This document shows positions 36,976 to 56,395 of a stretch of DNA of 59,943 bases, piece by piece; the first letter of the stretch is position 1; every line of letters begins with the position of its first letter. The notes below the pieces were generated by a model. It had not been told where the DNA came from. It did no database searches and saw nothing but the letters and a program-made list of their open reading frames with translations. Source of the stretch: an uncultured virus (IMG/VR IMGVR_UViG_3300012277_000001) (Duplodnaviria; Heunggongvirae; Uroviricota; Caudoviricetes); IMG/VR virus record IMGVR_UViG_3300012277_000001, positions 248,001 through 307,943 of that record. One strand, written 5' to 3'. Made by a program: the position numbers and the translations under genes.

Positions 36976-36979
36976 AGAC

Positions 36980-39987: not shown

Positions 39988-40008
39988 ACCCCGCCACGTG
40001 CGGGGTTT
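39988..40008 (+). terminator. Hairpin/weak terminator, CMYGT-loop family
   Basis: accccgc-cacgt-gcggggt-tt. Confidence 0.55.
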
Positions 40009-40041
40009 GCCAATAACAGCCCTTTAGAAAGGAAATCGAAC

Positions 40042-42525: not shown

Positions 42526-42543
42526 TCGTCGGCGGTTAACAGG

Positions 42544-42568
42544 AAGCCGGGCACGTCCCGGCTTTTTT
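42544..42568 (+). terminator. Intrinsic terminator (CACGT loop)
   Basis: aagccggg-cacgt-cccggc plus T6. Confidence 0.85.
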
Positions 42569-42595
42569 CGTAGGAGGACAAAAAGAGGGCTGATC

Positions 42596-42805
42596 GTGGA
42601 TTTCGCACTTTGGAGAAATTTCACAATGGGCGCCATCGTGTTTCTGGCGGTTCTGCTGCTGGGCATTCTGGTGATCTACATATGGAACGAATACGCGTCG
42701 ATGAAAAATCGGCAAGCGGAGGAAGAGCGGCGAACCCAAGAACGGGAAGCCGAACTTAGGGCACACCTTCACCACAAACCAAAACCCGAGGACAAACAAC
42801 CATGA
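42596..42805 (+). CDS. Small single-TM membrane protein
   Basis: GTG start, SD GAGG; hydrophobic helix then charged tail. Confidence 0.65.
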   Translation: MDFALWRNFTMGAIVFLAVLLLGILVIYIWNEYASMKNRQAEEERRTQEREAELRAHLHHKPKPEDKQP

Positions 42806-42975
42806 CCCTGTTCGACGTTTTGCAGTCTATCCCTATCGGTTCTGCCATCTTCGTTTGTGTAGGCTTCTGTTTCCTGTGCTGGTACGACCGGAAGCACGGT
42901 TCTGTTTACGAACGGTCGGCCCGTGAAATCGAGTCGCACCTAGCAGAACTGCAAGCCCGGCATCCCAAAAAGTGA
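42802..42975 (+). CDS. Small single-TM protein (57 aa, below ORF-track cutoff)
   Basis: ATGA overlap, SD GAGGA; MTLFDVLQSIPIGSAIFVCVGFCFLCWYDRK... Confidence 0.65.
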   Translation: MTLFDVLQSIPIGSAIFVCVGFCFLCWYDRKHGSVYERSAREIESHLAELQARHPKK

Positions 42976-43027
42976 CGCGTGCGCGCCCGCACGTATAGAA
43001 GGGCAGCAAAACTTTTGGGCCAACCGC

Positions 43028-43112
43028 TTGACACGGGAACCCGGTTTTGCGAATCTTTGGTTGCGGCCAAGTCGTGCCTGCAAAACACACACTCACGGAA
43101 TAAGGGAAGTTT
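43028..43112 (+). promoter_or_regulatory. Sigma70 promoter plus conserved leader, copy 3
   Basis: TTGACA-17-GAATCT (TGn); CACTCAC-N7-GGGAAGTTT. Confidence 0.75.
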
Positions 43113-43117
43113 GAACC

Positions 43118-43480
43118 ATGAAACGGAATCGCCGCATCGCTTTCACCGCCATCGAAGATTGGGCAGTACCAAAAACCGCTGGCACGCTTTCGTTCTTCGA
43201 AACGATCTGCCTGTCGTCTTTGGAAGGCAAAGAAATTCGCCTCGACGCCAAAACTCAACGCGCAGTGATCGGCTACCCTGTTTTTGGTAAGCAGCCTTTT
43301 ACTGTGAACGTGGATGGCACCGTTACCGTTCGTAAAAGCATTGCGTTCGGGCAAGATTCTGAAGAGCGTAAGTATTGCGCCCGCGAAGTGGATTACGCCC
43401 GCTTGAATAAATTGCGCATGGAACCCGGCACGCAGGGTGAAGGCATCTTCAGCAGCATTCCACAACCGGAGCACTACTAA
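43118..43480 (+). CDS. Hypothetical early protein
   Basis: First gene after leader copy 3. Confidence 0.75.
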   Translation: MKRNRRIAFTAIEDWAVPKTAGTLSFFETICLSSLEGKEIRLDAKTQRAVIGYPVFGKQPFTVNVDGTVTVRKSIAFGQDSEERKYCAREVDYARLNKLRMEPGTQGEGIFSSIPQPEHY

Positions 43481-43894
43481 ATGGCATACCCGCAGAAAAT
43501 ATTACTCACGAAGCACCAGCGCGAAGTGCTGCTGCATCGCCTTCGTTACCTGTCGTACCTGACGGATGAACAACTGTCCGAACTTTGGTCTAACGACAAA
43601 CGCGAAGCCCCGTTGAGCATCGCCGCGCTGGAAACGGCACTGGGCGAGTACGACCAGCTTTTCAGCCGCTGCGCTGGAAACCAGTTGATCGCAATCAGCA
43701 TCGAACGTGTGGAACAGGCCGAAGCGTTGGCCGAAGCACTCGAAGGCTCGACGTATTTCGCAACGCGTGTAAAAGGTGACGGGGTTTACGTCCACGCAGC
43801 AAACGCAGTCGCGGAACTTTTGTCCACGATTCTAGATCGTGATGTGGTTCCCAACGTCGGCCCGCGTAAGCCGCACTGTAAGGCAGACAGATAA
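43481..43894 (+). CDS. Hypothetical protein
   Basis: SD GGAG; abuts upstream stop. Confidence 0.7.
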   Translation: MAYPQKILLTKHQREVLLHRLRYLSYLTDEQLSELWSNDKREAPLSIAALETALGEYDQLFSRCAGNQLIAISIERVEQAEALAEALEGSTYFATRVKGDGVYVHAANAVAELLSTILDRDVVPNVGPRKPHCKADR

Positions 43895-43931
43895 ACCTGT
43901 TTGCGCATCTAGGATGGTGCGCAAGCCGGTT
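43894..43931 (+). promoter_or_regulatory. GCAU-Y-N6-R-GUGC hairpin, copy 1
   Basis: aacctgtttgcgcatc-taggat-ggtgcgcaagccggtt. Confidence 0.75.
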
Positions 43932-43961
43932 GTACTGAAACCTACCCTCGGAGAAACAGAC

Positions 43962-44246
43962 ATGGCACGTAAAGCTGCCGATTCGGAAATCGTACTAGAG
44001 GCACCTGCGAACCTCGACCCGGCGCTGACACATTTCATTGTCTGCGATTTTGGGGATTGGGCTATCGGTGCCACGATTCGTGAAGCCCTGACTAACGTTC
44101 CTTTCGGCAAACGCACGGAACTGGAACCGACTATGCAGGTCTGGCACGTAACCCCCGGCACTTTCATAAGTGCATCCGGCGAGTTCTGGAATCACGATTG
44201 CCAGATTCGCCCGGTACTGAACGAAAGTCGCCGCAAAACCCGTTGA
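43962..44246 (+). CDS. Hypothetical protein
   Basis: SD GGAG. Confidence 0.7.
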   Translation: MARKAADSEIVLEAPANLDPALTHFIVCDFGDWAIGATIREALTNVPFGKRTELEPTMQVWHVTPGTFISASGEFWNHDCQIRPVLNESRRKTR

Positions 44247-44329
44247 CACCCGGCGCCTGTAATGGCATTCTGAAATCCAATCGGCAACCACGCCGACATA
44301 GTTTGACACTCACACTTTAAAGGAAGTTA
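44243..44329 (+). promoter_or_regulatory. Sigma70 promoter plus conserved leader, copy 4
   Basis: TTGACA-17-CATTCT (TGn); tcggc/gccga hairpin; CACTCAC-N7-AGGAAGTTA. Confidence 0.8.
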
Positions 44330-44333
44330 CCCC

Positions 44334-45809
44334 ATGACCAACGTTACCCACACCCAAACTGCTCTGCTGGTTGCTGCTGTTGAAACCCTGAACAAAGTTC
44401 TGTCGGATGCCAAAAAGGGCGGCGTTGCCGTTCCGGGCCTCGGCACCGAAGTTGGCGAAGGCATCAAACTGCGCGACCTGAAAAACTTCCTGAAGGAATT
44501 CAAGGCCAAGCAAGCCAGCGCCAAAGCACCAGCTGAAAAAGCTGCTGCACCGAAAACCGAAGCGCCTAAAGCAACCCCAGCCAAGGCCGAACCGGTGGAA
44601 CTGAAAAGCGCTGCCATCGTCGAAGCTGGCACCGTCAAAATCGGTCGCAACACCGAAACCGTTCTTCGCGTCCGCAACATCAGCGGCGTGCGCACTGCTG
44701 TAACTGACAAAGGCACCCGCATTGCCGCCGCTGATCTGGAGTTCAACAATCGCGGCGCCCTGCGCGTGAAGCTGGATTGCGAAGCCAAGTACAACGGCAA
44801 AGCCGCCCCGGCCAAAAAGCCAGCCGCCGAAGTGCAGGAAGACTTCGCAGAAGAGAAATCGAGCAAGCCTGCGAAGCCTGCAACCAAGCCAGCCGCCAAA
44901 GCTGACGACACCCGCAAGTTCCCGATCCGCGTCCTGAAAATCAAAAAGACGCCGATGATCGAAAGCATCGAGTATGACCGCAACACTAAAACCCTGTTCG
45001 TTACCCTGAAAGGCGGCGTGCAGTGGGCATACGAAGGCGTTGCACTGAGCGAAGCCCGCGATCTGGAACAAGCGGCGCAGCCGTGGAAGCATTACAGCGC
45101 GCATATCGCCAACGGTAAGAAAGGCGAGAAAGTGACCAAAGCACAGGCCACTACTGCCCCTGCACCAGCCCCGAAAGCTGGTAACAAAGCCCCGGCAAAA
45201 CCTGCTGCATCGGCGCCTATCAGCACTTCGCGCCTGCGTGCCGAAGGTTTTGTAGATGGCCGCACCAAAGAGCAAGTGCTGAACATTTCCAAAAACAAGG
45301 AAACCGGTGAGCGCTTCGTGAACACCGTTAGCGGCAAGAAAGTACCGCTGGCGTTCATCATCGAAGTGAAAAACAAGTTCCGCGTTTCCGATCTGGCAGG
45401 CATCGCAGACGCTATGGAAAAGGCCGGTGTGGCTTCGCGTGACGCCAAAGCAGGTTCCAAGGTTGCCGCCGAAAAGCCAGCCGAGAACACCCGCAAGGCG
45501 CAGGCAAACGGCAAGGCTGAAAAGCTGAATTTCGCAGCCGCTGAAGGCAAAGGTAGCACCAAAGCACGCGCCAAAGTGGTATCGGAAAAACCTACCCGCG
45601 CTTTCGTCAAAGAACAGGGGGTGCGCGTGGTGAAAGGCTCCAAAGAAAAGCTGGTCGATATCCTGCGTGTCGTTAAGCGCGGTGAAGTTCTGACCGCTGT
45701 ATCGGCTGCTGAAGGCCACGCGGGTATCCCGTTCGATCTGATCATGTCTTTTGATGGTCAACCAACCTTCACCGGCAAGCTGACCGCCGCCGAGTTCCAC
45801 GCCCTGTAA
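44334..45809 (+). CDS. Lys/Ala/Pro-rich histone-like protein with internal KTSC domain
   Basis: KPAAK-type linkers; I.SI.YD....TL.V..KGG..W.YEGV.......L..A.....Y...I matches KTSC; extreme codon bias. Confidence 0.75.
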   Translation: MTNVTHTQTALLVAAVETLNKVLSDAKKGGVAVPGLGTEVGEGIKLRDLKNFLKEFKAKQASAKAPAEKAAAPKTEAPKATPAKAEPVELKSAAIVEAGTVKIGRNTETVLRVRNISGVRTAVTDKGTRIAAADLEFNNRGALRVKLDCEAKYNGKAAPAKKPAAEVQEDFAEEKSSKPAKPATKPAAKADDTRKFPIRVLKIKKTPMIESIEYDRNTKTLFVTLKGGVQWAYEGVALSEARDLEQAAQPWKHYSAHIANGKKGEKVTKAQATTAPAPAPKAGNKAPAKPAASAPISTSRLRAEGFVDGRTKEQVLNISKNKETGERFVNTVSGKKVPLAFIIEVKNKFRVSDLAGIADAMEKAGVASRDAKAGSKVAAEKPAENTRKAQANGKAEKLNFAAAEGKGSTKARAKVVSEKPTRAFVKEQGVRVVKGSKEKLVDILRVVKRGEVLTAVSAAEGHAGIPFDLIMSFDGQPTFTGKLTAAEFHAL

Positions 45810-45829
45810 GGCAGGGCGTTACATTTGCA

Positions 45830-45865
45830 AACCCCCGGCGTAGAAATACAAAGGGGGTTATTTTT
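45830..45865 (+). terminator. Probable intrinsic terminator
   Basis: aaccccc...gggggtt with internal gta-gaaa-tac, then attttt. Confidence 0.6.
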
Positions 45866-45900
45866 CGTCCGTGGTTTTCCATTAGCAAGGAGGAATTCTA

Positions 45901-46542
45901 ATGGAACAATTTTTCGGCTTTAAAGGCGTAATGATCACCATCGGGTTAGGTATCGTTGTCTGCTTTTTCATTCTTTGGCGATTGACCGCCAACGAAAAGC
46001 GCGAAGTTCGTACAACCGAAACCCTGTCAGATTTTGACGCTGCCGTTTCCCCTGCATTGCAGGAGGAAAGTTTCTGGTCTGCGCCCAAGCAGGATATGCC
46101 GCTTCGTGACATTGCGTTCACACGCGAAGAACGCGAACTAGCAAGGCAGGCCGCGAACGCTCTTCAGGCCGTTGCAGATTCCGACCCTGTGCCGGAAACT
46201 GTAAATGTTGAAGTAGCGCCAAAACCCCGGTTCGATTATCCCAACTACGAAGGCTTTCCCTGTGAAGGCACGTCGTATGACGAATTCGAACTCTCGATGC
46301 GGCAACACGGCTTCGTGATGCGCTTCGACATGCGGGCACAGCAGGTTCACGTTTTCTATTCGCAGCCAAAAGTGGCACGCGGCCCGATGGATGTTTTGCG
46401 GCGTCTGTATCGTGCGCCGCTAGAAATCTTCCCGTCGAACCTGCTGCACGAAGAGGGCCGCAAGCGCACCGCCCTTTGGGCCATGCGTAAATTTAAATCG
46501 GAAGAGAAACGGGCCGAACTCGACTCTTTCACCTACCTGTGA
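45901..46542 (+). CDS. Membrane-anchored hypothetical protein
   Basis: SD AGGAGG; N-terminal TM segment. Confidence 0.75.
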   Translation: MEQFFGFKGVMITIGLGIVVCFFILWRLTANEKREVRTTETLSDFDAAVSPALQEESFWSAPKQDMPLRDIAFTREERELARQAANALQAVADSDPVPETVNVEVAPKPRFDYPNYEGFPCEGTSYDEFELSMRQHGFVMRFDMRAQQVHVFYSQPKVARGPMDVLRRLYRAPLEIFPSNLLHEEGRKRTALWAMRKFKSEEKRAELDSFTYL

Positions 46543-46548
46543 GGCTAC

Positions 46549-47001
46549 ATGAAAACTGGTAAGTCGTATCCGATCACCATGGACGTTAATCGCCGCGATA
46601 TAGATTTCGACGACCGTGTGGAAACGCACGACCAGCACGGCGATTTCGATCTGGAAATTGTGCTACGTGACGACGCTTGCCGCCGTAAATTCGCAACCGT
46701 GATGATTCCTGCCGGTCGCATGATGGCGGCATTGGGCAACCGCTCACACGTCCCGTGCACAATCGAATTCGGGGAACATTTCCCGCTGTTTGGGAAATCC
46801 CGCGAAACCAAAACGATCTGGATTAAAGAACAGAAAAAAACCGGCGGTAAAAGCGAACCCAAGATTCCTGCAAAGTACATAGCCGAAGGCTGGGAATATT
46901 ACAGCGGTTACGGCAGTTCCCGTTCTGGTGAATTGCGCGATGGCCAGTGGCATTACCCATGCACCCTGCAACGTTTTGTCGAAGAAGAACCCGAGGAATA
47001 A
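46549..47001 (+). CDS. Hypothetical protein
   Basis: SD GAGG. Confidence 0.75.
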   Translation: MKTGKSYPITMDVNRRDIDFDDRVETHDQHGDFDLEIVLRDDACRRKFATVMIPAGRMMAALGNRSHVPCTIEFGEHFPLFGKSRETKTIWIKEQKKTGGKSEPKIPAKYIAEGWEYYSGYGSSRSGELRDGQWHYPCTLQRFVEEEPEE

Positions 47002-47003
47002 AA

Positions 47004-47588
47004 ATGGCACGTGCAAAAAAGAAAGTCGAAGAACCGGCCATCGACCCAGCTATTGCGTGGAGCGCCAGCGAAACCGTACGCCTTGAAGGGCTGCGCGAAC
47101 TGTTCAAAGCGACCGGCCTGCAAATCGACGAACTGAAGGCCGCGCAACATCGCGGAATCAACGTCGAAGAATTCCGCCGCCGCGTTAAAGCCGAAGAAAA
47201 ACGCCAAGACAAAATCGTGGCGCGTTTGAAAGCAGCGACCGAAGAAATGGGCGGCACCGTTTCCAGCGTCGAATCCACCGGCATTTTCGGTGACGCGCAA
47301 TACACGTGGTATTTCAAATTCAAGCTGAGCAACAAATGGTCACTTGAATTTACGCTGTGCCGTGGGCCGGAAGCAGACGCCTACGATTTGCCGCTGTCGT
47401 TCCAGTGGCGTGTCTGGTGCCATGGTCGCAAGGCATTCGGGCGAACCGCTTTCGTCACCCCATACAACGATCACGATTATCACGATTGTGAATCGGTGCC
47501 TGAACTCAAAAAGGCAATTAAAATGGCCGTCAAGTGGTTGAACGACACACGCGGCTCCGACAACAAAAAAGAAATCAAACTCGCCTGA
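47004..47588 (+). CDS. Hypothetical protein
   Basis: SD GAGGA. Confidence 0.75.
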   Translation: MARAKKKVEEPAIDPAIAWSASETVRLEGLRELFKATGLQIDELKAAQHRGINVEEFRRRVKAEEKRQDKIVARLKAATEEMGGTVSSVESTGIFGDAQYTWYFKFKLSNKWSLEFTLCRGPEADAYDLPLSFQWRVWCHGRKAFGRTAFVTPYNDHDYHDCESVPELKKAIKMAVKWLNDTRGSDNKKEIKLA

Positions 47589-47606
47589 TCAGGCTAAGGG
47601 ATAATT

Positions 47607-48002
47607 ATGCTTTCGCTGATGTTGAATTTGTGTCTTGCGGGTCAACCGTGCAAGGAAGTGCGTGTCGCGGATTTCTTCACGGCGCAGGCTAGTTTCATGT
47701 GCGAGTTTAATCGCGAAGGTATGCAGGAATCGGCCCGCAAAGAAAACCGACCGGGCACCTTCAGCTGCAAAGCCGGGCAGGCACAGGAAAAGTTGAAACC
47801 GCTGGCCACCCTGAATTTCAGCGTGTGTCTCGCCAGTGGAAAACCCGGTGAAGCCTGCGAGGGTTTCGCGCTTGCTTATTTCTACGGCGCAGAATATGCG
47901 GAACCGGCATGTGCAAAGAATGCCGCGCTTATGCGACCTGCGTTTGAGCAAGCCGCGAATGAGTCTGGCGCCCGCGCTAAACTCGACTGCTCTTCTATCT
48001 AG
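47607..48002 (+). CDS. Cys-containing protein with internal duplication
   Basis: Two L...CLA..(PC/AC).....A.F......C..N...M units. Confidence 0.7.
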   Translation: MLSLMLNLCLAGQPCKEVRVADFFTAQASFMCEFNREGMQESARKENRPGTFSCKAGQAQEKLKPLATLNFSVCLASGKPGEACEGFALAYFYGAEYAEPACAKNAALMRPAFEQAANESGARAKLDCSSI

Positions 48003-48011
48003 GGGCATATC

Positions 48012-48290
48012 ATGGTTTTGAGTTCTGGACAGGTAGCAATACTATTTCTGGTGATGGGGTGCGCAGCCGCGATTCTGAGCATGCTACAAATTCACAGCCG
48101 GTTGCGTAACGCTCAAATCAGGGCGCAGTTGGCAGAATCGAAAGCAATGTTGTTGGAGGTCGAGAACCTGCAACTGCGCAATCGTAGGAAGTACGCCAAT
48201 CATGGGCAAGGTCCAACAAACGCAAAACCCGAACCGGAAGGTGCAACGTTCGAGCTTTGCAAGAAGACCGGCAGTTGGCGCGTGACATGA
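48012..48290 (+). CDS. Small membrane protein with coiled coil
   Basis: SD AGGGG; N-terminal TM segment. Confidence 0.65.
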   Translation: MVLSSGQVAILFLVMGCAAAILSMLQIHSRLRNAQIRAQLAESKAMLLEVENLQLRNRRKYANHGQGPTNAKPEPEGATFELCKKTGSWRVT

Positions 48291-48293
48291 ACG

Positions 48294-48326
48294 AAAGGCT
48301 CCCCAGTTTGCGCTGGTGGGGCCTTT
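48294..48326 (+). terminator. Probable terminator
   Basis: aaaggctcc.cag/ctg..ggggccttt stem. Confidence 0.6.
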
Positions 48327-48426
48327 CTGCGTTTCTGGCCCCGACCCACGGTTTCCCCCTGCCCTATACGCGGGCGGGCGCGTGTGCGCTTGTATAGGGG
48401 CCGTTGCGGGGCTTCAACATCGGCTG

Positions 48427-48514
48427 TTGACATTGGGTAGGCCGTTTGTTACCTTTGGGCCAAGTCGGGCATCGCCTGCCTGACAAACAGCCACTCACGC
48501 AATTAGGGAAGTTT
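48427..48514 (+). promoter_or_regulatory. Sigma70 promoter plus conserved leader, copy 5
   Basis: TTGACA-17-TACCTT (TGn); gtcgggca/tgcctgac hairpin; CACTCAC-N7-GGGAAGTTT. Confidence 0.85.
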
Positions 48515-48518
48515 AGAA

Positions 48519-48665
48519 ATGGCCTACGCAACGACAGTCAAACGCAAACCCGCTGTAGCCGCTAAATCGTGGGATTGGGATTCCGCGTTCCGCAAGGAAA
48601 GCGCTACCCGCGAAAAAGAAGTGACGGACGCCGCTCGCCGCTTCCGCAAATCCATCAGCCAATAA
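48519..48665 (+). CDS. 48-aa basic early peptide (below ORF-track cutoff)
   Basis: ATG at the same offset from the leader motif as in copy 2; MAYATTVKRKPAVAAKSWDWDSAFRKE... Confidence 0.75.
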   Translation: MAYATTVKRKPAVAAKSWDWDSAFRKESATREKEVTDAARRFRKSISQ

Positions 48666-48677
48666 GGAACCGCCATC

Positions 48678-48956
48678 ATGGGCCGCATTGCAAACCGCAT
48701 TAAACCGCTGGGTTACGAAATCCGTTTGAAATCGGGCGTCACTGTTTTGAGTCGGGGCGTCGGTGATTCCCAGCTGACCATGAAACAGCAGGCACACAAA
48801 GTCTGCACCAGCGAAACAAAAGGTGCTGTCGTGCTGCGCTACTTCAAACGCCCTGACGACACCATTCAGGAGGATCGGTTCTACGCCGTCGAATGGTCGG
48901 AAACGTTGGGTCACGCAAAAGAAGTAAATGCCACTGCGTTCACCTTCGCCCCGTAA
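48678..48956 (+). CDS. Hypothetical protein
   Basis: SD AAGGA. Confidence 0.75.
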   Translation: MGRIANRIKPLGYEIRLKSGVTVLSRGVGDSQLTMKQQAHKVCTSETKGAVVLRYFKRPDDTIQEDRFYAVEWSETLGHAKEVNATAFTFAP

Positions 48957-48965
48957 GGAGGCGCC

Positions 48966-49184
48966 ATGCGAACGGCGACCATCATCAAAGCGCTAGGCTC
49001 GGATAAGCTGGCACTGTACAAGGGGAGTGGTTACTTTTACTTCACGTACGACGACCCACAACAAAACATTTTCGAAACGCACAGCATCGACGCTGTGTGT
49101 CGCCTAACCGACCTGACCCTAGAACAGTGGATCAGCGAAGGCAAAACCCTACTTACCAAAATCGAAACGGAGTACGCACAATGA
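48966..49184 (+). CDS. Hypothetical protein
   Basis: SD AAGGAGG. Confidence 0.8.
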   Translation: MRTATIIKALGSDKLALYKGSGYFYFTYDDPQQNIFETHSIDAVCRLTDLTLEQWISEGKTLLTKIETEYAQ

Positions 49185-49309
49185 ACCACCTTCCAGTTAA
49201 CGACCTGCTGACCGTTGTAGTTTTCGCCGCTGTTTTTGCGGTGCCTGTATACATCGAATGGCTGCGCAAACAAAGCCAACCCAAACCACGCGGCGCCACT
49301 AAAATCTAA
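49181..49309 (+). CDS. Small membrane peptide (42 aa)
   Basis: ATGA overlap, SD GGAG; one TM segment and basic tail. Confidence 0.65.
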   Translation: MNHLPVNDLLTVVVFAAVFAVPVYIEWLRKQSQPKPRGATKI

Positions 49310-49315
49310 CAGTGA

Positions 49316-49353
49316 GTTTTTTCTGCGCATCTAGAACGGTGCGCATATGAAAC
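49316..49353 (+). promoter_or_regulatory. GCAU-Y-N6-R-GUGC hairpin, copy 2
   Basis: tgcgcatc-tagaac-ggtgcgca with lower gtttt/gaaac stem. Confidence 0.75.
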
Positions 49354-49402
49354 GAAGCTGCATCCATAACCGCAACACACGATCCTTATCAGGAGCCACA
49401 AA

Positions 49403-49678
49403 ATGTTCCTAATGCATAACATCATCAAATCGCTTTTCCCCCAAGACCACGAAGTCAAATTGGTCGGCAAGTTTTCCAACGCCTGTGCCTACACCGTGGA
49501 AACCAAATTGGGCGACATTGAAATGCTTGTCGCGACCTTCACCGTGGATGCTGGCGACGAATTCGCCCTGACTACGTTGAACGGCGAAGCGTGCCAGAAA
49601 GGAACAGGCTTTGCGCAATTCAAGAAGGCGCTGAAATCGCAAGACCTGCTGTGCAAATTCGAAACCATCGAGGAATAA
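49403..49678 (+). CDS. Hypothetical protein
   Basis: SD AGGAG. Confidence 0.75.
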   Translation: MFLMHNIIKSLFPQDHEVKLVGKFSNACAYTVETKLGDIEMLVATFTVDAGDEFALTTLNGEACQKGTGFAQFKKALKSQDLLCKFETIEE

Positions 49679-49679
49679 A

Positions 49680-50012
49680 ATGGAAGCCCACGCACGGAGT
49701 CACCCACGCGCCGCCCGCATTCGTACGCTGGTCGAGGCCATGGACGAACACATGGTGCGCTTGACCCGGTTGCAGTTCAGCTATCTAGAAAACTTTTACT
49801 GCACCGAAAAGGAAATCGCTACGGCGATTTTCCTGCTTTACGATGGTTCTGAAATCTTTGGCCATTTCAAGGCCCACCACAAACACGGCACCAGCGTAAT
49901 TGATTTCGAAATCGAGAGAAATAACGTGGTGCTCGCAAAAGGAAGTGGTATCACAGAGTGGTGCCAGTATATGAAACAACGGGGCGTGCTGCGCCCTTGG
50001 GTAAGGCTATAA
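49680..50012 (+). CDS. Hypothetical protein
   Basis: SD GAGGA. Confidence 0.7.
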   Translation: MEAHARSHPRAARIRTLVEAMDEHMVRLTRLQFSYLENFYCTEKEIATAIFLLYDGSEIFGHFKAHHKHGTSVIDFEIERNNVVLAKGSGITEWCQYMKQRGVLRPWVRL

Positions 50013-50021
50013 GGAGGCACT

Positions 50022-50351
50022 ATGGAAAAGGTTGTCTGCATTAAAACCAAACAGGCGGTGAACGCTAGCGATGTGCAGCAGAAATTCCCCGCCGTGTATC
50101 AAACGCTGACCGAATCCGAAGCCCGCTGGGGAACGCGCCCTGACGGTTTTCTGGTGGCGTTGTCTGCCGCTGCTTTTCGTGCCCGCGCCAAAGATATCAT
50201 GGATGCGTGCAGTTACGAAGAATACACCCGCGTCGATGGTGATCCTATACCCTGCTTCGTCACTGCGGAAACTTACAAGGCAATGGCCGAAGGTAATGGT
50301 TCCCTTTGGCTACACATTAGCCAAAATGACAAAAGCTGGATGGTGCAGTAA
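50022..50351 (+). CDS. Hypothetical protein
   Basis: SD AAGGAGG. Confidence 0.8.
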   Translation: MEKVVCIKTKQAVNASDVQQKFPAVYQTLTESEARWGTRPDGFLVALSAAAFRARAKDIMDACSYEEYTRVDGDPIPCFVTAETYKAMAEGNGSLWLHISQNDKSWMVQ

Positions 50352-50629
50352 TGGCCGCAATTAAAGTGGGCAGCTACACACGCACAGCCGCAACGACCCA
50401 CGTTGTAAACCGCTGGCACATTCCCAACGGTAGCGATTACCATATGGCCCGCGTCGTGAATATTTTCTTCGACGATGAACAGGCGGCAATCGAATACCAA
50501 AAAGAATACAGGATGCCACCAGAAATGGCAGACCTGATGACGGTGGCCAAATACGATGATCTGATGGCGGCATCCTCCAAATCCTATTCGCAATACAAAA
50601 AGCGATTCCAGCAAGACTTCGATAAATAA
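50351..50629 (+). CDS. Hypothetical protein
   Basis: TAATG coupling. Confidence 0.7.
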   Translation: MAAIKVGSYTRTAATTHVVNRWHIPNGSDYHMARVVNIFFDDEQAAIEYQKEYRMPPEMADLMTVAKYDDLMAASSKSYSQYKKRFQQDFDK

Positions 50630-50632
50630 TCG

Positions 50633-50662
50633 CCGGTACGCATTCCAACGAGTGCGTATCGG
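50633..50662 (+). promoter_or_regulatory. GCAU-Y-N6-R-GUGC hairpin, copy 3
   Basis: ccggtacgcattc-caac-gagtgcgtatcgg. Confidence 0.75.
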
Positions 50663-50686
50663 GATGAAACACCGGAGGATCAACAA

Positions 50687-50890
50687 ATGGCTGTAGGTTG
50701 GGCACGCGAAGGCGACACTGAAAAAGAAACCGAGAACGCGATAGCGATGGAAATTTACCGGGCGCGTAAATCGCTGGCAGGGCCACCCCGTACCGAGTGC
50801 ATCGACTGCGACGAACCAATAGGCGAAGCGCGGCTGCGTGTTCACCCAACGGCCCAGCGCTGCATACGTTGCCAAGCCGCTAGGGAGTGA
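50687..50890 (+). CDS. DksA/TraR-family C4 zinc finger (YbiI-like)
   Basis: MA.GWA N-terminus; C.DC.EPI.EAR....P....C..CQ motif. Confidence 0.9.
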   Translation: MAVGWAREGDTEKETENAIAMEIYRARKSLAGPPRTECIDCDEPIGEARLRVHPTAQRCIRCQAARE

Positions 50891-51111
50891 TGCGTATGTT
50901 TGATTTCAAGGTTCACCAAATAACGGGCAGCACCTACGCCAGTCTCGAAATGATCGACGGCGATTACACGCTGTCGTACGATATCAATTTCCAAGACGAC
51001 CCGGAGGCCCGCGATTTCCCCGAAGAAAACGTGTGGGCGCGGGCGTGCTGCTACAACCATACAGAAAATAAATACTGGCCGGATGACGGCGAAACCGAAA
51101 ATTCCTACTGA
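50887..51111 (+). CDS. Small acidic hypothetical protein
   Basis: Overlap with upstream stop; SD GGGAG. Confidence 0.65.
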   Translation: MMRMFDFKVHQITGSTYASLEMIDGDYTLSYDINFQDDPEARDFPEENVWARACCYNHTENKYWPDDGETENSY

Positions 51112-51121
51112 GGACCGCATC

Positions 51122-51502
51122 ATGGAAAAATATCTGACGGTGCAACATTTCTTCTCGCTGTTCCCGTACTGGTACATAGCAGCCTGCTTCGTTACGGGCT
51201 TTATCGCGTTCCCGGCCATGTTGGCTGTTCTGGCTAAGCCGCTGGCGCGTGGTGTGTCTCACGGCCTGTACGAAGTTGTGCTGTATTGGAAAGCGGGTGT
51301 ACCCGTGTGGGGCATCTTCAAACGTTTCCTGCGCGTGATCTATTTCGATTTGCCGCTGTGGGGCATCCTGAATAGCACTGTAACCAAAACCAGCATAGGC
51401 CCCGCTTGCTGGTACGGCATATTCGGTTGGTACTACGAAAAGAGTTTCACCCGCGCCAATTCCCTGACCACCATAAAGGCCAATAAGGAGGCTACCAAGT
51501 GA
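51122..51502 (+). CDS. Membrane protein
   Basis: SD GAGGA; hydrophobic. Confidence 0.7.
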   Translation: MEKYLTVQHFFSLFPYWYIAACFVTGFIAFPAMLAVLAKPLARGVSHGLYEVVLYWKAGVPVWGIFKRFLRVIYFDLPLWGILNSTVTKTSIGPACWYGIFGWYYEKSFTRANSLTTIKANKEATK

Positions 51503-51735
51503 AAGCACGTGAACCGATGTGGACTCTTTCCGATTTGGCTGAAAATCAAAAGGTGGCGATTTCCACGCTGCGCGACCGCCTGCGCAAAGCACCGTTGCCC
51601 GAACGTAAAGTTGAATCTGCGCTGCCTGCCGGTAAGTTCGGCGCCGTGGCTAAATCTGATCGCTACTGCCGTTCTATGTTGCTGGAGTGGTTCCGCCAGC
51701 AGGATCAGCAAACCCCTTTTAAACGGAAGGCCTGA
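51499..51735 (+). CDS. Small HTH (excisionase/AlpA-like) protein
   Basis: WTLSDLAE...V..STLR.R motif; SD AGGAGG with GTG start. Confidence 0.65.
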   Translation: MKAREPMWTLSDLAENQKVAISTLRDRLRKAPLPERKVESALPAGKFGAVAKSDRYCRSMLLEWFRQQDQQTPFKRKA

Positions 51736-51737
51736 GC

Positions 51738-51935
51738 ATGCGTCCAGCGAATTACGTGACTGACCCGGAATGGTTGGCCGGTTCTGACTACAAGGAATGT
51801 GTACGCTGGGCGATTTATTCCCACAAACATTTTCTCAATACTCGGCGCCATGGTTTTCACATGGCTGCCGCTGAATACAAAATCGACCGTGCGTCGTTCC
51901 TACAGCGTGCGCGTCAATTGAGGCCTAAGCAATGA
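51738..51935 (+). CDS. Hypothetical protein
   Basis: Operon context. Confidence 0.65.
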   Translation: MRPANYVTDPEWLAGSDYKECVRWAIYSHKHFLNTRRHGFHMAAAEYKIDRASFLQRARQLRPKQ

Positions 51936-52285
51936 TCGAACTATTGGACAACCCCGAATCTGTAAATGAGTTGGTGGACGACCAGCGTGTAATGGTCGGC
52001 GGTGTTGAATGTATTTTCAGCTGCGACAACAAACGCGTGCCGCAATCCACCTATGTTTATCTGACCACCGCAAGTTCCCGAGTTACTGCCTACCACGAAG
52101 AGTTAGAAAGACTCGAAAAGAAAATGCGCGACGAAGGGCAGGACGAATTCGTTATCAGCATGGCCGGTCACTGCATCTACGGAGATTACATTTATAATTT
52201 CCGCCAGACTGAAAACGGGGCGGCTATGATGAACCGCGAACAGATGATCGACATTCTTAAAAGCGGCCAGTACGTTCTGGCGTAA
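51932..52285 (+). CDS. Hypothetical protein
   Basis: ATGA overlap, SD GAGG. Confidence 0.7.
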   Translation: MIELLDNPESVNELVDDQRVMVGGVECIFSCDNKRVPQSTYVYLTTASSRVTAYHEELERLEKKMRDEGQDEFVISMAGHCIYGDYIYNFRQTENGAAMMNREQMIDILKSGQYVLA

Positions 52286-52294
52286 GGAGACACA

Positions 52295-52984
52295 ATGAAT
52301 ATTCCAACTTGGGCCACCGTAATTCTTTTGGCGTGCGCGCTGTTTGTTCTGTGGCGACACGTATTGCCAAAATTGCCCTACGCAGTTGCGGCCTTCGTCG
52401 GGTTTATGCTCCACCAGCAGGCAGCCAAGGCAATCGGCGTACATCGCGGGCCTATTTGGGCACACGCCCCGCATTTCATTTTGCGAGCGTATAAAACGCG
52501 CATGCAGTACCAAACAACCCTGCGCTATCCAGACCTCGATTACAATTACGCGAAGGGCATCGTCAACAACATTACCAAGGGCGAGCGTTGGTTAGATTCG
52601 ATGGCGCATTACCTTTCCATGGGCCGACACAACGCCACGGTTACGGTGATCAAGAATGGCCCCGATCTGAAAGTTAATGAAACGCTGGAATACGTGGTAG
52701 GTGTTTTGCCCGGTAACGAAGATTACGCACCGATGCGTGCGTTGATCTTGCACCCAATGTCGGACGCCGTTGAATCCATTATCGGCTTCGATCTGGCCAA
52801 ACTTCAAAAAGCTGTAAAACACTATATGCCTGACGTTGAGGCCATCATGGTTTACGAACCGCGCTCGCTGGTTGACGGCAAGTGGAACACCATCGCTTAC
52901 CTGTCGGCATTCGAAGGCAGTATGTGCGGCGAGTGGTACGACGTAGACCACCTGATGTTTAAAATCCCCAAGGACGAAAAATGA
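52295..52984 (+). CDS. Membrane-anchored hypothetical protein
   Basis: SD AAGGAG; N-terminal TM segment. Confidence 0.75.
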   Translation: MNIPTWATVILLACALFVLWRHVLPKLPYAVAAFVGFMLHQQAAKAIGVHRGPIWAHAPHFILRAYKTRMQYQTTLRYPDLDYNYAKGIVNNITKGERWLDSMAHYLSMGRHNATVTVIKNGPDLKVNETLEYVVGVLPGNEDYAPMRALILHPMSDAVESIIGFDLAKLQKAVKHYMPDVEAIMVYEPRSLVDGKWNTIAYLSAFEGSMCGEWYDVDHLMFKIPKDEK

Positions 52985-53346
52985 AGCGCTATCATATTTA
53001 TCTGCGTGGCACCAAACACATCGGTTCAGTTACGGCCCAACTCATGGCGCAATGCATCCGCGACTATGACCGGTTTGATTATCCGTGGATGGCAAACTTG
53101 CTTCGTGACCTGTGCGCAGATGCAAAAGAGCGGGCAAAGCCGGACTGTCCGCCAGTGCGCCCACTGGTTGTCAACGAAGTGCAGGCTTCCGCGTGGGCCA
53201 TCGCAGTTAACGCCACCAAAGCAACCCGCAAGGCGTTGGAATGCACGCTCGCTACGCAGCGCCACGGCATGTTCATTGGTTGGAGCGAAACACCCCTGCC
53301 CGATCCCGACACCGTGCGCTGTGCGCACTGCCAGCGCCCCTACTGA
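52981..53346 (+). CDS. Hypothetical protein with C-terminal CxxC
   Basis: ATGA overlap, SD AAGGA. Confidence 0.7.
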   Translation: MKRYHIYLRGTKHIGSVTAQLMAQCIRDYDRFDYPWMANLLRDLCADAKERAKPDCPPVRPLVVNEVQASAWAIAVNATKATRKALECTLATQRHGMFIGWSETPLPDPDTVRCAHCQRPY

Positions 53347-53360
53347 GGCTTACAGGTCGA

Positions 53361-53389
53361 TTGACCGTCTGTCGGCCTTTGGGTACAAT
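53361..53389 (+). promoter_or_regulatory. Sigma70 promoter, copy 6
   Basis: TTGACC-17-TACAAT. Confidence 0.8.
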
Positions 53390-53394
53390 GAAAC

Positions 53395-53462
53395 CTCTTC
53401 GCCCAACTGTGGGCCGAGAACATACAGTCACACGATAAGGGAAGTTTAGGACTTCCCTTTTT
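53395..53462 (+). ncRNA. Candidate ~70-nt small RNA or attenuated leader carrying the TCAC-N7-GGGAAGTTT motif
   Basis: 5' hairpin gccca/tgggc; motif 53425-53447; aagggaagt pairs with acttccctt (53451-53459), then T-run; no ATG at the usual offset. Confidence 0.55.
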
Positions 53463-53489
53463 CATATTGGACCCAACGAGGAAATAACC

Positions 53490-53954
53490 ATGAACTTCAA
53501 ACAATCGCTGATCACCATCCTGCAATTCAACCGCGTTACCTCCGAAGAGGTGGGCGACATTTCTGTGGCACTCGCTTCGGGGTTGATCACCGAAACCGAG
53601 TTTCTGAAAAAATTGATCGACCTTGCGAATCGCAGTAACTCGGTTCCCAAGGAAGCGCTGGAAAAGATGGCGCAGGAATCTTTCCCGTATAGCGTGGCCA
53701 CCGGCAGCTATGATGACGATGGTGAAAACTGCAAATACTGCGATGACTTCGCCAGCATGCGCGATGCGATTACCGCGTGGGAAGAGTATTCGCCGGGTGC
53801 TGCATGGGCACGCATCGAGTTCACGTGCGACGGATTCACCTACGGCCTCGATCCCTACAAGATCCGCAAAGCCAAGCGGGTGAAAATGGACGATGGCGAA
53901 ACGCGCACCATGTACATGCGCTGCAACGAGCGCGGCGAATTCATCGACCAGTGA
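53490..53954 (+). CDS. Hypothetical protein
   Basis: Own SD GAGGA downstream of the terminator-like hairpin. Confidence 0.75.
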   Translation: MNFKQSLITILQFNRVTSEEVGDISVALASGLITETEFLKKLIDLANRSNSVPKEALEKMAQESFPYSVATGSYDDDGENCKYCDDFASMRDAITAWEEYSPGAAWARIEFTCDGFTYGLDPYKIRKAKRVKMDDGETRTMYMRCNERGEFIDQ

Positions 53955-53956
53955 TA

Positions 53957-53992
53957 ATTCTCAAGGGCATCTAGATCGGTGCCCTTCGGAAT
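53957..53992 (+). promoter_or_regulatory. GCAU-Y-N6-R-GUGC hairpin, copy 4
   Basis: attc-tc-aagggcatc-tagatc-ggtgccctt-cg-gaat. Confidence 0.75.
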
Positions 53993-54020
53993 GACCACAA
54001 ACAGAAATAGAGGAAAGCAG

Positions 54021-54590
54021 ATGGAAAATATCAAATACCACGTTGTTAAAGCATCGCGTTCTTATAGCGGTGTGGGTTACAGCGGGCCTGCCTTGAAGCG
54101 CACCACATTCTCCGAAATGGAAAGTGCATCGTTCGACAATCTGACCACCGCCATTCACTGTGCGACGCAACTGAACGAAGAAAATCCGGTAGGCTTCGAG
54201 ATTTACCATCGGGGCCAATTGGTGTGGCCTGAAAAGGGCGTGCGGAAACAGGCGGGCAACAACCCAGCGGTTCCCGATGAACACGCGCTGCGTCTCGCAG
54301 GCTATGTTCTGGCGTCGGCCAAATGCCACGAAGACAACTACGACAAAGAGGCGGCCAGCGAGGCCGAAAAAGAAGCGGGGGCCGAATACGACAATGCGAA
54401 AGCATCGGGCGACCCCTATTACTACATGCACGTTGTAGACTTCGCCAAGTTCTACAAACTGACGTTGCGCCAAGCTGTAGAAGCCACGGCGCCCGCTGCA
54501 TTTGTGGAGCCGGTTTACCTGCTGCTGCAACTAAGCTGGAACGACGCCCTCGACTGGGCCAAGCGCATCACGGAAGGCCAGCCGAGCTAA
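54021..54590 (+). CDS. Hypothetical protein
   Basis: SD GAGGA. Confidence 0.75.
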   Translation: MENIKYHVVKASRSYSGVGYSGPALKRTTFSEMESASFDNLTTAIHCATQLNEENPVGFEIYHRGQLVWPEKGVRKQAGNNPAVPDEHALRLAGYVLASAKCHEDNYDKEAASEAEKEAGAEYDNAKASGDPYYYMHVVDFAKFYKLTLRQAVEATAPAAFVEPVYLLLQLSWNDALDWAKRITEGQPS

Positions 54591-54657
54591 GGAGAGACGA
54601 TGCACCTGCAATTCGTATTTATTCAGTGGCGATCACCTAAGCCACTGAGAACGCAAA

Positions 54658-54978
54658 ATGTCGCGCACTATCCGACGCCATAACCTGTGCCCATACAACA
54701 CCGGAGACGTTTACCACGTAGACGATTCCCGCTGGCGTGATGTGTGGCCCGGTTTGGATTATCAGCAGTATCAGAAATTGGCGCTGGCACATTTCCACCG
54801 TGACAACGCCGACATTTTTGGCACTGAGTATTCGATCCCTCGGCTGTACGGCCACCTTTGCCAAGAACGCCCACAACGGCGCCAGATTCGCGCACAGCTT
54901 TATCGTGCGTGGCGCTATGATGAATGGGACGACCTGAGCGTCAAACGTTGGCCCAAGGATTGGACGATTTACTACTGA
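54658..54978 (+). CDS. Hypothetical Arg-rich protein (MSRTIRR N-terminus)
   Basis: Open frame; N-terminus typical of phage hypotheticals. Confidence 0.7.
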   Translation: MSRTIRRHNLCPYNTGDVYHVDDSRWRDVWPGLDYQQYQKLALAHFHRDNADIFGTEYSIPRLYGHLCQERPQRRQIRAQLYRAWRYDEWDDLSVKRWPKDWTIYY

Positions 54979-54981
54979 CGA

Positions 54982-55018
54982 TCCAGTGAAGGGCATTCAC
55001 CCGAGTGCCCTTTGCGGA
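54982..55018 (+). promoter_or_regulatory. GCAU-Y-N6-R-GUGC hairpin, copy 5
   Basis: tcc-a-gtgaagggcattc-accc-gagtgccctttgc-gga. Confidence 0.75.
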
Positions 55019-55031
55019 AACATCAGGGTAC

Positions 55032-55445
55032 ATGAAAATGGAAAATGATCTGCAACTGACGACGCAGCATTTAGATCCAGATAAGCGCGCCTATTCGCTG
55101 CACAAAAATGGGCAGGCTGTTGCTTATTTGGAAGTTGACGCCTATTCGAAATTCTTGGCACTCGAAGACGTTGTGACCTACGACGCACATCGCCGCAAAG
55201 GCTACATGCGGCAGATGATTACCGAGGTAGTCAAACGCGAAGGGGCTGAAGTGGTTCGCTTGCTGGTCTATCCAGACAATAAGCCTGCGATCAAACTTTA
55301 TCGGTCGCTAGGTTTTCGGTTTGCCAAAGACGGCGTTTATCGTAAGTCATTGGGCGCCCGATGTGCTGATCCGGAAGACGCAAAGATTTTGGAAAAGCTG
55401 CCTGAAATGGTTTGGGCCGCGTCGAGGAAATTGGAGGAAGTATGA
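55032..55445 (+). CDS. GNAT acetyltransferase
   Basis: V.T...HRRKGYMR motif A; L.V..DN.PAIKLYRSLGF motif B. Confidence 0.9.
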   Translation: MKMENDLQLTTQHLDPDKRAYSLHKNGQAVAYLEVDAYSKFLALEDVVTYDAHRRKGYMRQMITEVVKREGAEVVRLLVYPDNKPAIKLYRSLGFRFAKDGVYRKSLGARCADPEDAKILEKLPEMVWAASRKLEEV

Positions 55446-56395
55446 ACCGCAAGGATCTGGAAAAACTGTTCGACCGTTACGATGTTTACTACGACGAAGT
55501 TGGGTTGGACGTACGCGATGTTCGCACAGGCAGGCATATCGGTTCGGTGCACTACATCAGCGGCACCACCGGTTCCGAAGTGCTGGCAGTCTGCAATAGC
55601 GAATTGAGTACACTGCGCCAACCCAAGCTGATTTCGATTGGCGGCGAATGCAGTTTCCGCAACGTTCACGAATTGGCCAACTCGCTAAACAGCGACCGCC
55701 GTCTGGAAGGCAAACGGCCTGCAAGCGAGCGCATGCTTAATCGAGAATTCAAAGCGTGCGCCAAATTCGATTTCGAATCGTGCGTGAAGCTGTTAAAGGC
55801 GTGGTTGGACTTCCTGTTCTTCGCAGACGGCAATAACGAACTGCCCGAAGACGTTACCGACCGCCTGAACAAAGCGGGCAAACGCCACTATGGCAAAGTG
55901 CGCAAGGCACGTACCAGCGTTGTAGCCGAGGCGCCTAAACCCTATACCGGCCCCCATGGCTGGAACGATGCCATACGCGCCCTGCACGGCCCAAAGGAGA
56001 GCGATTCGGACGAACCCGATGCTACCCTAGCGCCTACCGAGAAAAACGCGCCTCTGATCCTCGGAACGCTCAAGGCGTTGGATGCCAACGCCACGCACGA
56101 AGGCAGGCATCAAGCGGTGTATGAACACGTGCTGAAGAACGGCCCGGTGTGTCGCCGGGAGTTGGTCGAAAGCGTAAGCATTTCGCGGGTAAACGTTACA
56201 CGGATCATCCGCCGTCTGGAAAATTGCGGGCTGTTGATCGAAAAGCCCTGCGGGATCGGCAAACACTTTGTGGCGTTGGCATCGTGTGGCATCGACGTAA
56301 CTCGCGTGGCAGCCGCGTACGCAGTGCTGGTAATGCAACGCACGTACGAAGAAATGGCTGACAAATATAAATCTGCATACGGGACCATGCCATAA
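55442..56395 (+). CDS. Protein with C-terminal winged-HTH (MarR/ROK-type)
   Basis: VYEHVLKNGPVCRRELVE...ISR..VTRII.RLE..GLL. Confidence 0.75.
   Translation: MNRKDLEKLFDRYDVYYDEVGLDVRDVRTGRHIGSVHYISGTTGSEVLAVCNSELSTLRQPKLISIGGECSFRNVHELANSLNSDRRLEGKRPASERMLNREFKACAKFDFESCVKLLKAWLDFLFFADGNNELPEDVTDRLNKAGKRHYGKVRKARTSVVAEAPKPYTGPHGWNDAIRALHGPKESDSDEPDATLAPTEKNAPLILGTLKALDANATHEGRHQAVYEHVLKNGPVCRRELVESVSISRVNVTRIIRRLENCGLLIEKPCGIGKHFVALASCGIDVTRVAAAYAVLVMQRTYEEMADKYKSAYGTMP

Follow-up and report, generated by a model that had tools for sequence, protein, structure and literature searches.

Covarying intercistronic hairpins in a jumbo-phage gene block resemble the RNase III processing sites of T7 and T3

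RNase III processing of the early messages of phages T7 and T3 is textbook biology. The early RNA of T7 is a product of the host polymerase and is cut at five sites, as set out in an excerpt of PMC4858673. Here we describe a family of small intercistronic hairpins in the genome of an uncultured virus (IMG/VR record IMGVR_UViG_3300012277_000001), a single sequence of 307,943 bp with 52% G+C. The window, that is, the whole stretch of DNA analysed, comprises the final 59,943 bases of this record (genome positions 248001-307943), and feature positions are window coordinates unless marked "genome". Five of the hairpins, W1 to W5, lie within the window, and a sixth, W6, completes the set (Table 1). 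They are conserved, covarying elements of the sense strand, placed between genes, that match both the substrate rules of RNase III and the sites of T7 and T3. By analogy with those sites, we consider it likely that the hairpins are processing signals for the host RNase III, built to the same design as the T7 and T3 early sites.

The rules for a minimal Escherichia coli RNase III substrate have been laid out by Pertzev and Nicholson 2006 (PMC1540722) and Nicholson 2014 (PMC3867540), and we use them as given in excerpts of these two papers. The distal box, which adjoins the tetraloop in T7 R1.1, is canonically UA/UG, and its U.G pair is stringently required, with a 50-fold drop when UG is changed to GU and a drop of more than 30-fold when it is changed to AU (PMC1540722). 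At position 2 of the proximal box AU or UA is preferred and GC or CG blocks binding (PMC3867540, PMC1540722), and at position 4 a GC pair in the minimal T7 substrate lowers cleavage 14-fold and leaves binding undiminished (PMC1540722). The loop and the cut must be separated by no fewer than 11 bp, and the loop sequence is free (PMC3867540, PMC1540722). Internal loops confine the cut to one strand, which leaves a protective hairpin at the 3' end of the upstream product (PMC3867540, PMC1540722).

The earlier note on this DNA had described five hairpins with cores at 43905, 49327, 50640, 53967 and 54993 on the + strand, and the pattern GCATYNNNNNNRGTGC recovered all five at exactly these positions. 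A check of the sequence bore out the cores that the note quoted and its outer stems (tgc/gca, tac/gta, aagg/cctt), along with the covariation of the Y:R pair (three C-G sites, two U-A) and the U.G wobble, found in 5/5 window hairpins. The placement it reported is likewise accurate: each core starts 10-17 nt past the stop codon of the upstream open reading frame (ORF), in a gap of 53-93 nt before the next start codon. Small internal loops and bulges lead from the upper stems down into further stems, and no U-tract follows any of the five. Across the window the pattern matches six times (five on the + strand, one on the - strand) against 0.70 +/- 0.96 expected, and 0/100 shuffles reach six. The sole - strand match, at 5250, falls within a predicted gene (5168-6517). 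The whole genome holds nine matches: the five of the earlier note, W6, and three (genome 80668, 177418 and 253265) that lie outside the + strand gene block and are missed by the covariance model introduced below.

Two forms of the core can be distinguished. Type I reads GCAUC-N6-GGUGC and type II GCAUUC-N4-GAGUGC, so that in type II two of the six bases that the earlier note had assigned to the loop are actually paired. The invariant portion is an A-U pair followed by the U.G wobble, one or two pairs beneath the loop. Below it the hairpins fold in three tiers, with an upper stem of 8-13 bp, a bulge or small internal loop, a second stem of 3-5 bp, a larger internal loop and a third stem of 3-6 bp. 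The second stem often takes in the TAA stop codon of the upstream gene, for example as UAAUC...GAU.

The closest public kin of this virus are the Pseudomonas jumbo phages HRDY3, with 75-79% nucleotide identity over this region, and Lu11, with 41% identity in the 491-aa protein adjoining W1 and 80% in the DNA polymerase. Remoter kin are PaBG, phage NCTB, and Dickeya and Erwinia jumbo phages, whose DNA polymerases are 45-54% identical; an excerpt of PMC7412058 describes the same grouping. Six hairpin copies are present in this genome, seven in HRDY3 and six in Lu11, and all 19 lie between co-oriented ORFs on the strand of the genes. The copies are syntenic across the three phages. Those of HRDY3 occupy matching gaps; five are strict, one has an 8-nt spacer and one is an extra copy with an ACAU/GUGU core. 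In this extra copy (PQ015379 277328-277375; locus L001 9433-9480) the first core pair has changed on both sides and the U.G is retained. The gene beside it (276901-277326) is missing from the W2-W3 interval of the present genome. Lu11 carries five strict copies and an ortholog of W1, all on the - strand like the local genes. The W1 ortholog (NC_017972 5431-5496; locus L031 1501-1566, - strand) keeps the stem and flanks, and its 22-nt loop holds a small hairpin of its own. None of these hairpins is annotated in the corresponding regions of the Lu11, HRDY3 and PaBG records.

The earlier note had proposed a covariance model and a search of phage genomes, and both yielded further copies in related jumbo phages. 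Model R1, built from the hairpin copies, found three copies in PaBG, one in Dickeya phage JA11 and a weaker one in Erwinia phage Alexandra; searched against NCTB and AD1 it found none. A second model, R2, trained on jumbo-phage copies only, added one weak match in AD1. The three PaBG copies and the JA11 copy follow stop codons, between co-oriented ORFs and on the gene strand. The Alexandra copy, 340 nt past an annotated stop, is less certain.

Covariation, which the note had read from five hairpins, extends to these wider alignments. Among 17 copies from the three phages, 94.7% of cells pair, as against 75.7% in shuffled alignments (0/500 as high) and 26.6-52.4% when partners are slid, and six of ten pairs have changed on both sides. 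With 23 copies the paired fraction of cells is 90.6%, compared with 69.1% for shuffles (0/500 as high) and 30-51% with slid partners. Compensatory changes are seen between W3 (uac/gua) and its HRDY3 ortholog H3 (ugc/gca), between W6 (uaa/uua) and H6 (uag/cua), and in the outer stem of W5, which is aagg/ccuu here and augc/gcau, different throughout, in the copy that precedes acetyltransferase gene gp372 of Lu11. Across the 23 copies the A-U and U.G pairs are invariant, and the two pairs below them vary, one being G-C in 20, C-G in two and A-U in one, the other C-G in 22 of 23. The lower flanks, too, pair best with their own partners, at a mean of -4.6 kcal/mol compared with -2.4 kcal/mol when they are matched to the partners of other copies (0/5000 permutations as low). 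The covariance model scores the gene strand at 42-51 bits and the reverse strand at 15-29 bits. Hence the element is read in sense RNA, because the U.G and further G.U pairs become C.A on the other strand and the reverse strand scores far lower.

These properties bear on whether the repeats could act as DNA, either as recombination or mobility cassettes of the T4-type promoter-stem-loop or REP-like (repetitive extragenic palindromic) kind or as single-stranded DNA sites. The T4-type promoter-early stem-loop cassettes of Arbiol, Comeau and Krisch 2010 are said to comprise about 70 bp of conserved DNA, including a promoter, and are reportedly thought to be recombinational. Like the present hairpins, they are repeated intergenic stem-loops among the small early genes of a large myovirus. 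All copies of the present family have one orientation in common, and the extra ACAU/GUGU copy of HRDY3, alongside a gene lacking here, recalls such cassettes and could mark a cassette junction. However, only about 10 nt are conserved in the jumbo-phage hairpins and the flanks diverge freely. What is kept is the RNA-pairing core, with compensatory changes and G.U pairs that turn into C.A mismatches on the opposite strand, and the promoters of the region form a separate repeat family. Moreover, synteny is stable in three phages and orientation follows the genes, also where these lie on the - strand in Lu11 and PaBG. We therefore regard a role at the DNA level as extremely improbable.

The hairpins carry the determinants of an RNase III substrate. 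The U.G of the distal box, with U on the 5' arm as the rules have it, occurs in 23/23 copies. The loop-ward pair beside it is the canonical U-A in 14 of the 23 and departs from the rules in the other nine, where it is C-G, as in T7 R0.3 and R1. Six steps below the wobble, column pair 14-37 is UA in 17 copies, AU in six and GC in none, amid neighbouring pairs that are mostly G-C. We infer that this column pair is position 2 of the proximal box, because C9:G30, the 6-nt 5' product, the 11-bp helix and the GCAA loop of the minimal substrate can be laid on the native T7 stem; on this mapping all 23 copies have the preferred A-U or U-A pair. The equivalent of at least 11 bp separates the loop from the predicted bond, and the stems are irregular at the target. 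Counted 10 nt from the wobble G, the predicted bond meets a bulge or internal loop in 16/22 copies; LuF, a Lu11 copy, is excluded from this count since its expanded loop upsets the numbering. As is typical of the T7 sites, we are dealing with irregular hairpins of about two helical turns, as the three-tier stems and their covariation indicate, and they are intercistronic and on the sense strand of what promoter and terminator consensus matches, and these alone, suggest are polycistronic transcripts.

The likeness to T7 extends to the sequence of the stems. Folded from the T7 record, R0.3 reads AAGGGUAUC-GCAA-GGUGCCCUU, R1 reads CAGGUCAUC-UGCG-GGUGGCCUG and R1.1 reads AAGGUCAUUC-GCAA-GAGUGGCCUU. 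The stem of W4, AAGGGCAUC/GGUGCCCUU, is a single base off that of R0.3. The type I core has CAUC/GGUG in common with T7 R1, the type II core has CAUUC/GAGUG in common with R1.1, and T3 R1.1 combines CAUC/GGUG with a 6-nt loop. In R0.3, R1 and R1.1 there is an unpaired stretch at the same place as the interruption of the jumbo-phage hairpins. The T7 cleavage coordinates, which we take to be 890, 3138 and 5887 after Dunn and Studier 1983, fall at the end of this stretch.

Taken as a group, the T7 and T3 early sites (R0.3, R0.5, R1, R1.1 and R1.3) and the jumbo-phage hairpins are intercistronic elements of long early transcripts made by the host polymerase, the transcript being a predicted one in our case. 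In both groups the upper stem runs to about 9-13 bp and is capped by CAUC/GGUG or CAUUC/GAGUG with the U.G next to the loop. An A-U pair stands six steps under this wobble, an internal loop opens some 10 nt past its G, the 3' side bears an A/G-U-G-A motif, and neither group has a U-tract. The phages themselves are unrelated, Pseudomonas and Dickeya jumbo myoviruses on the one hand and small E. coli podoviruses on the other. The hairpins also differ in detail: the lowest core pair is G-C here, whereas it is U.G or U-A in T7; a 6-nt loop is common in the jumbo phages; in several copies a single bulged base replaces the 3-nt internal loop; the type II upper stem reaches 13 bp; and cleavage is predicted here.

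Model R2, trained on the jumbo-phage hairpins, also detects coliphage sites. Over the whole T7 genome R2 gives a single match, the hairpin between genes 1 and 1.1 (E 0.0017). In an unfiltered search of T7 700-6600, ranks 1, 2, 3 and 5 of its seven matches are the hairpins before genes 1.1, 1.3, 0.3 and 1. In T3, 2/2 matches fall within features annotated "RNase III recognition site R1.1" and "R1.3". In the control phages lambda, T4, phiKZ, T5 and phiKMV (662 kb), R2 has 0 matches at E<=1 and one in T4 at E 1.93. The earlier note had offered T7-like processing sites and boxB-like protein-binding elements as two readings of the family, and the first of these is the one that gains strong support, from the U.G of the distal box, the A/U proximal pair in 23/23 copies, the likeness to T7 stems and the cross-detection in T7 and T3.

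The second reading has points in its favour. The A-U/U.G core is the same in phages whose neighbouring proteins share only about 41% identity, which fits sequence-specific recognition, whether by a dedicated phage RNA-binding protein or by a host factor other than RNase III, as in boxB/N antitermination or at a translational operator. Early promoters stand a few genes upstream of the hairpins, and in one case a terminator follows; lambda nutR is similarly placed downstream of an early promoter and ahead of a terminator. A partner protein could hide among the products of the + strand gene block, since 46/56 of those scanned have no Pfam match (E<=0.01). Like the lambda boxB/nut elements, the present ones are small early-transcript hairpins between genes, downstream of early promoters. 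But boxB-type recognition reads the loop, above a short stem of free sequence. Here the arrangement is reversed, with a loop that is free in both sequence and size (3 to 22 nt) and a conserved portion that lies in the stem, in six to seven copies per genome, and no boxA-like partner was identified. A classical translational operator does not fit either, because the hairpins end 14-60 nt short of the next start codon and leave the ribosome-binding site (RBS) uncovered. Finally, RNase III rules already account for the U.G, the A-U/U-A pair six below it and the interruption about 10 nt beyond, and the model cross-matches known RNase III sites of T7 and T3. Recognition by such a protein thus strikes us as quite improbable, and the boxB-like alternative is not favoured.

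The hairpins might instead be passive RNA structures that block 3'-to-5' exonucleases or serve as weak, U-less sites of pausing or attenuation, so that genes near the promoter and genes far from it would be expressed at unequal levels, with no specific endonuclease involved. They are stable, at -18 to -32 kcal/mol per 64-nt hairpin segment; a position 10-17 nt after a stop codon is the usual one for a 3' stabiliser; and stem covariation speaks for a structure under selection. Yet mere stability leaves the oriented, invariant U.G, the exclusion of G-C at one position and the positioned interruption unexplained, and ordinary U-tract terminators are used elsewhere in the block. Since protection by the hairpin is already part of the RNase III model, a passive structure would differ from it only in how the 3' end arises. 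We hold a purely passive role to be decidedly improbable.

Several points nevertheless weigh against RNase III as the reader of these hairpins. At proximal-box position 4 (column pair 12-39, in 17 copies) the pair is GC in three, GU in three, UA in three, AU in one and UG in one, with six unpaired; the three G-C copies, W3, H3 and LuC, depart from the minimal-substrate rules. In 6/22 copies the interruption lies 1-2 nt closer to the loop than the predicted bond. Our placing of proximal-box position 2 depends on the native upper stem of R1.1 being retained in the minimal substrate. The conservation of the core in the PaBG, JA11 and Alexandra copies is partly built in, because these were found by a model that rewards the core. 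T7 R0.5 is absent from the seven unfiltered R2 matches in T7 700-6600. In gh-1, a T7-like phage of Pseudomonas putida, R2 finds nothing, and four stem-loops annotated as "putative RNase III recognition site" (locus L073 845-893, 3836-3885, 4362-4418 and 5684-5732) look different when folded: they fold weakly and have neither a U.G by the loop nor an A/U pair six below. The gh-1 result thus counts against assuming that all Pseudomonas phages use the T7-type signal. Lastly, the rules are those of the E. coli enzyme, and the loop of RNase III that contacts the distal box varies between species, so that the boxes may differ (PMC1540722, in excerpt).

A bolder proposal, which we regard as rather unlikely, makes the RNase III signal (U.G distal box and A/U proximal pair) a near-universal, sequence-specific address. 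Unrelated phages, the T7-like podoviruses of E. coli and the Lu11/PaBG/JA11-like jumbo myoviruses of Pseudomonas and Dickeya, would have converged on it or exchanged it as small cassettes along with genes. In the same proposal the site-3 copies W3, H3 and LuC, with their G-C pair at proximal-box position 4, may be binding-only, holding or titrating host RNase III and staying uncut, and would let the phage tune the host enzyme. The extra HRDY3 copy beside an extra gene fits exchange of cassettes rather than convergence.

If the hairpins are RNase III signals, they would act as follows. Host RNA polymerase would make long early operon transcripts from sigma-70-like promoters, and in the + sense RNA a hairpin would fold just past a stop codon. 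RNase III would dock on the U.G distal box by the loop and on the A-U/U-A proximal pair six steps lower, and would cut the 3' arm about 10 nt beyond the wobble G. The cut would probably be made in one strand only, because in most copies the helix is interrupted there by a bulge or internal loop. The upstream message would then end in a protective, stabilising 3' hairpin, and the downstream message would gain a 5'-monophosphate end, typically ...GAUGAAAC. In this way cutting would segment the operons into pieces free to differ in stability or translation. A search with PF14622 found no phage-encoded RNase III in this genome, HRDY3 or Lu11, so the proposed enzyme is that of the host. The cut itself, its precise place and any influence on expression are predictions.

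Table 1. Hairpins and predicted transcription signals. Positions are window coordinates unless marked genome; scores are those of the covariance model on the gene strand, and scissile bonds are predictions by analogy with T7.
Feature	Position	Strand	Sequence and remarks	Upstream neighbour	Downstream neighbour	Predicted scissile bond
Hairpin W1	43889-43936	+	type I core GCAUC-UAGGAU-GGUGC, 43905-43920; 42.8 bits	stop of ORF 43481-43894	ORF 43962-44246	43927/43928
Hairpin W2	49311-49358	+	type I core GCAUC-UAGAAC-GGUGC, 49327-49342; 48.2 bits	ORF 49181-49309	ORF 49403-49678	49349/49350
Hairpin W3	50624-50671	+	type II core GCAUUC-CAAC-GAGUGC, 50640-50655; 42.5 bits	ORF 50351-50629 (TAA stop inside lower stem)	DksA/TraR-type ORF 50687-50890	50662/50663
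Hairpin W4	53951-53998	+	type I core GCAUC-UAGAUC-GGUGC, 53967-53982; 47.1 bits	ORF 53490-53954	ORF 54021-54590	53989/53990
Hairpin W5	54977-55024	+	type II core GCAUUC-ACCC-GAGUGC, 54993-55008; 44.4 bits	ORF 54658-54978	GNAT acetyltransferase ORF 55032-55445	55015/55016
Hairpin W6 (sixth copy)	genome 892	+	just past window end, same gene block			
Sigma-70-like promoter (candidate)	43028-43056	+	TTGACA-17-GAATCT; conserved leader to ATG 43118; consensus match only			
Sigma-70-like promoter (candidate)	48427-48455	+	TTGACA-17-TACCTT; conserved leader to ATG 48519; consensus match only			
Sigma-70-like promoter (candidate)	53361-53389	+	TTGACC-17-TACAAT, 10/12 matches; consensus match only		ORF 53490	
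Intrinsic terminator	45833-45870	+	G+C-rich stem and U-tract; closes W1 unit			

The individual hairpins vary on the common plan. W1 has 11 uninterrupted base pairs from the loop and then a 1x1 internal loop at nucleotide 12 of the 3' strand; its orthologs are found in HRDY3 and, with the expanded loop, in Lu11. In W2, 8 bp are followed by a 3x3 internal loop and a 5-bp lower stem, GUUUU/GAAAC, and the hairpin proper is identical in HRDY3. Both type II hairpins of the window have 13 bp, which end at a bulged G on the 5' strand in W3 and at a bulged A in W5. A further intercistronic hairpin at genome 102586-102603 (- strand; locus L019) reads GGGCAUC-N8-GGUGCCC, with the same core and an 8-nt loop, followed by ACUUUAUU. 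Model R2 matches it partially at 9.4 bits (E 0.38), and it may represent a seventh site that has diverged, or else a terminator.

The gene block that houses the family is an unbroken run of small + strand genes from window position ~40,000 to the window end, continuing through genome 1-4,762. Within it, a typical unit consists of a promoter at ~43028, two genes, W1, two more genes and a terminator at ~45833. The promoter at 43028 would drive the transcript containing W1, that at 48427 lies upstream of W2 and W3, and that at 53361 would drive a transcript with W4, W5 and probably W6. In the Lu11 record, too, a sigma-70-type promoter is annotated inside the hairpin cluster. The hairpins lie within units bounded by promoters and terminators, and are therefore neither the promoters nor the terminators of the region. 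As intrinsic terminators they were rejected in any case, given that 5/5 have no U-tract, that they are absent from the terminator scan list and that true U-tract terminators occur nearby.

The promoters belong to a promoter-leader repeat in four copies (36888-36982, 43028-43120, 48427-48521 and 53361-53492; TTGAC-17-TACCTT/GAATCT/TACAAT). Its leader contains a small hairpin and ends in CTCACGnAATwAGGGAAGTTTAGA directly before the ATG. In the copy at 53.4 kb an additional hairpin with a T-run (53437-53459) is inserted ahead of the start codon. U-tract terminators similar to that at 45833 are found at ~35745-35775, 36802-36825, 38072-38095, 39990-40012, 42545-42572 and ~48300-48345, and several terminators of the block have the stem ACCCCGCC...GCGGGGT in common.

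Other identities for the hairpins were tried and set aside. Directly after W6, at genome 910, stands CTGTAAAT, a word of the Lu11 "middle/late promoter" type, and the arrangement is the same in HRDY3; this prompted us to consider the 3' motif RUGAAAC as a promoter. As a general explanation this idea was dropped, since part of the motif belongs to the 3' arm of the lower stem and some Lu11 copies have an RBS immediately after it. Words of the form CTGTAAAC/CTGTAAAT, which also occur at genome ~3770 and ~7277 and at window ~35166, resemble a Lu11 16-mer "putative middle/late promoter". A CsrA/RsmA site was rejected because GGA occurs in the W1 loop UAGGAU and in no other loop. Mimicry of a CRISPR repeat (an RNA anti-CRISPR), suggested by the GAAAC ending, was set aside, as the RNase III match explains the fixed position of the motif. 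No Rfam family matched the window at gathering score. At E<=5, window 42500-56000 gave three weak matches, none centred on a hairpin core; one of them, RT-19 (50668-50776), touches just the last 4 nt of the W3 model span.

Rough in-house gene calling gave 448 ORFs genome-wide, and 167/448 predicted proteins were scanned against Pfam. No RNA-processing enzyme is among these 167. The few Pfam-matched proteins of the + strand block include the DksA/TraR zinc finger and the GNAT acetyltransferase. A scan for tRNAs found none, terminase families searched as a marker gave no match in the genome, and a search for IMG/VR relatives through the 491-aa protein neighbouring W1 found none. Elsewhere in the genome there are two tail-sheath paralogs, at window 6567-8156 and genome 233332-234969 (locus L054 12332-13969). 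Two proteins, encoded at window 11030-14584 and 33697-34299, have a VgrG3-like C-terminal domain, which in one of them, of 1185 aa, is fused to a VanY-type peptidase.

The mechanism we propose is a known one. In the literature we searched on Lu11 promoters and on RNase III in jumbo phages, no report of such sites was found. T7-type sites in this jumbo-phage group would be a new instance, with a near-identical signal in unrelated phages of different hosts. If confirmed, the hairpins would map out the way in which this group of jumbo phages divides up its long host-takeover operons. They would also supply 20-odd natural variants as independent backing for two rules worked out on a single T7 substrate, those of the U.G distal box and the A/U proximal box, and would suggest that the RNase III enzymes of Pseudomonas and Dickeya read the same determinants as that of E. 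coli. The hairpins could then also be used as compact, portable processing or insulation parts for Pseudomonas.

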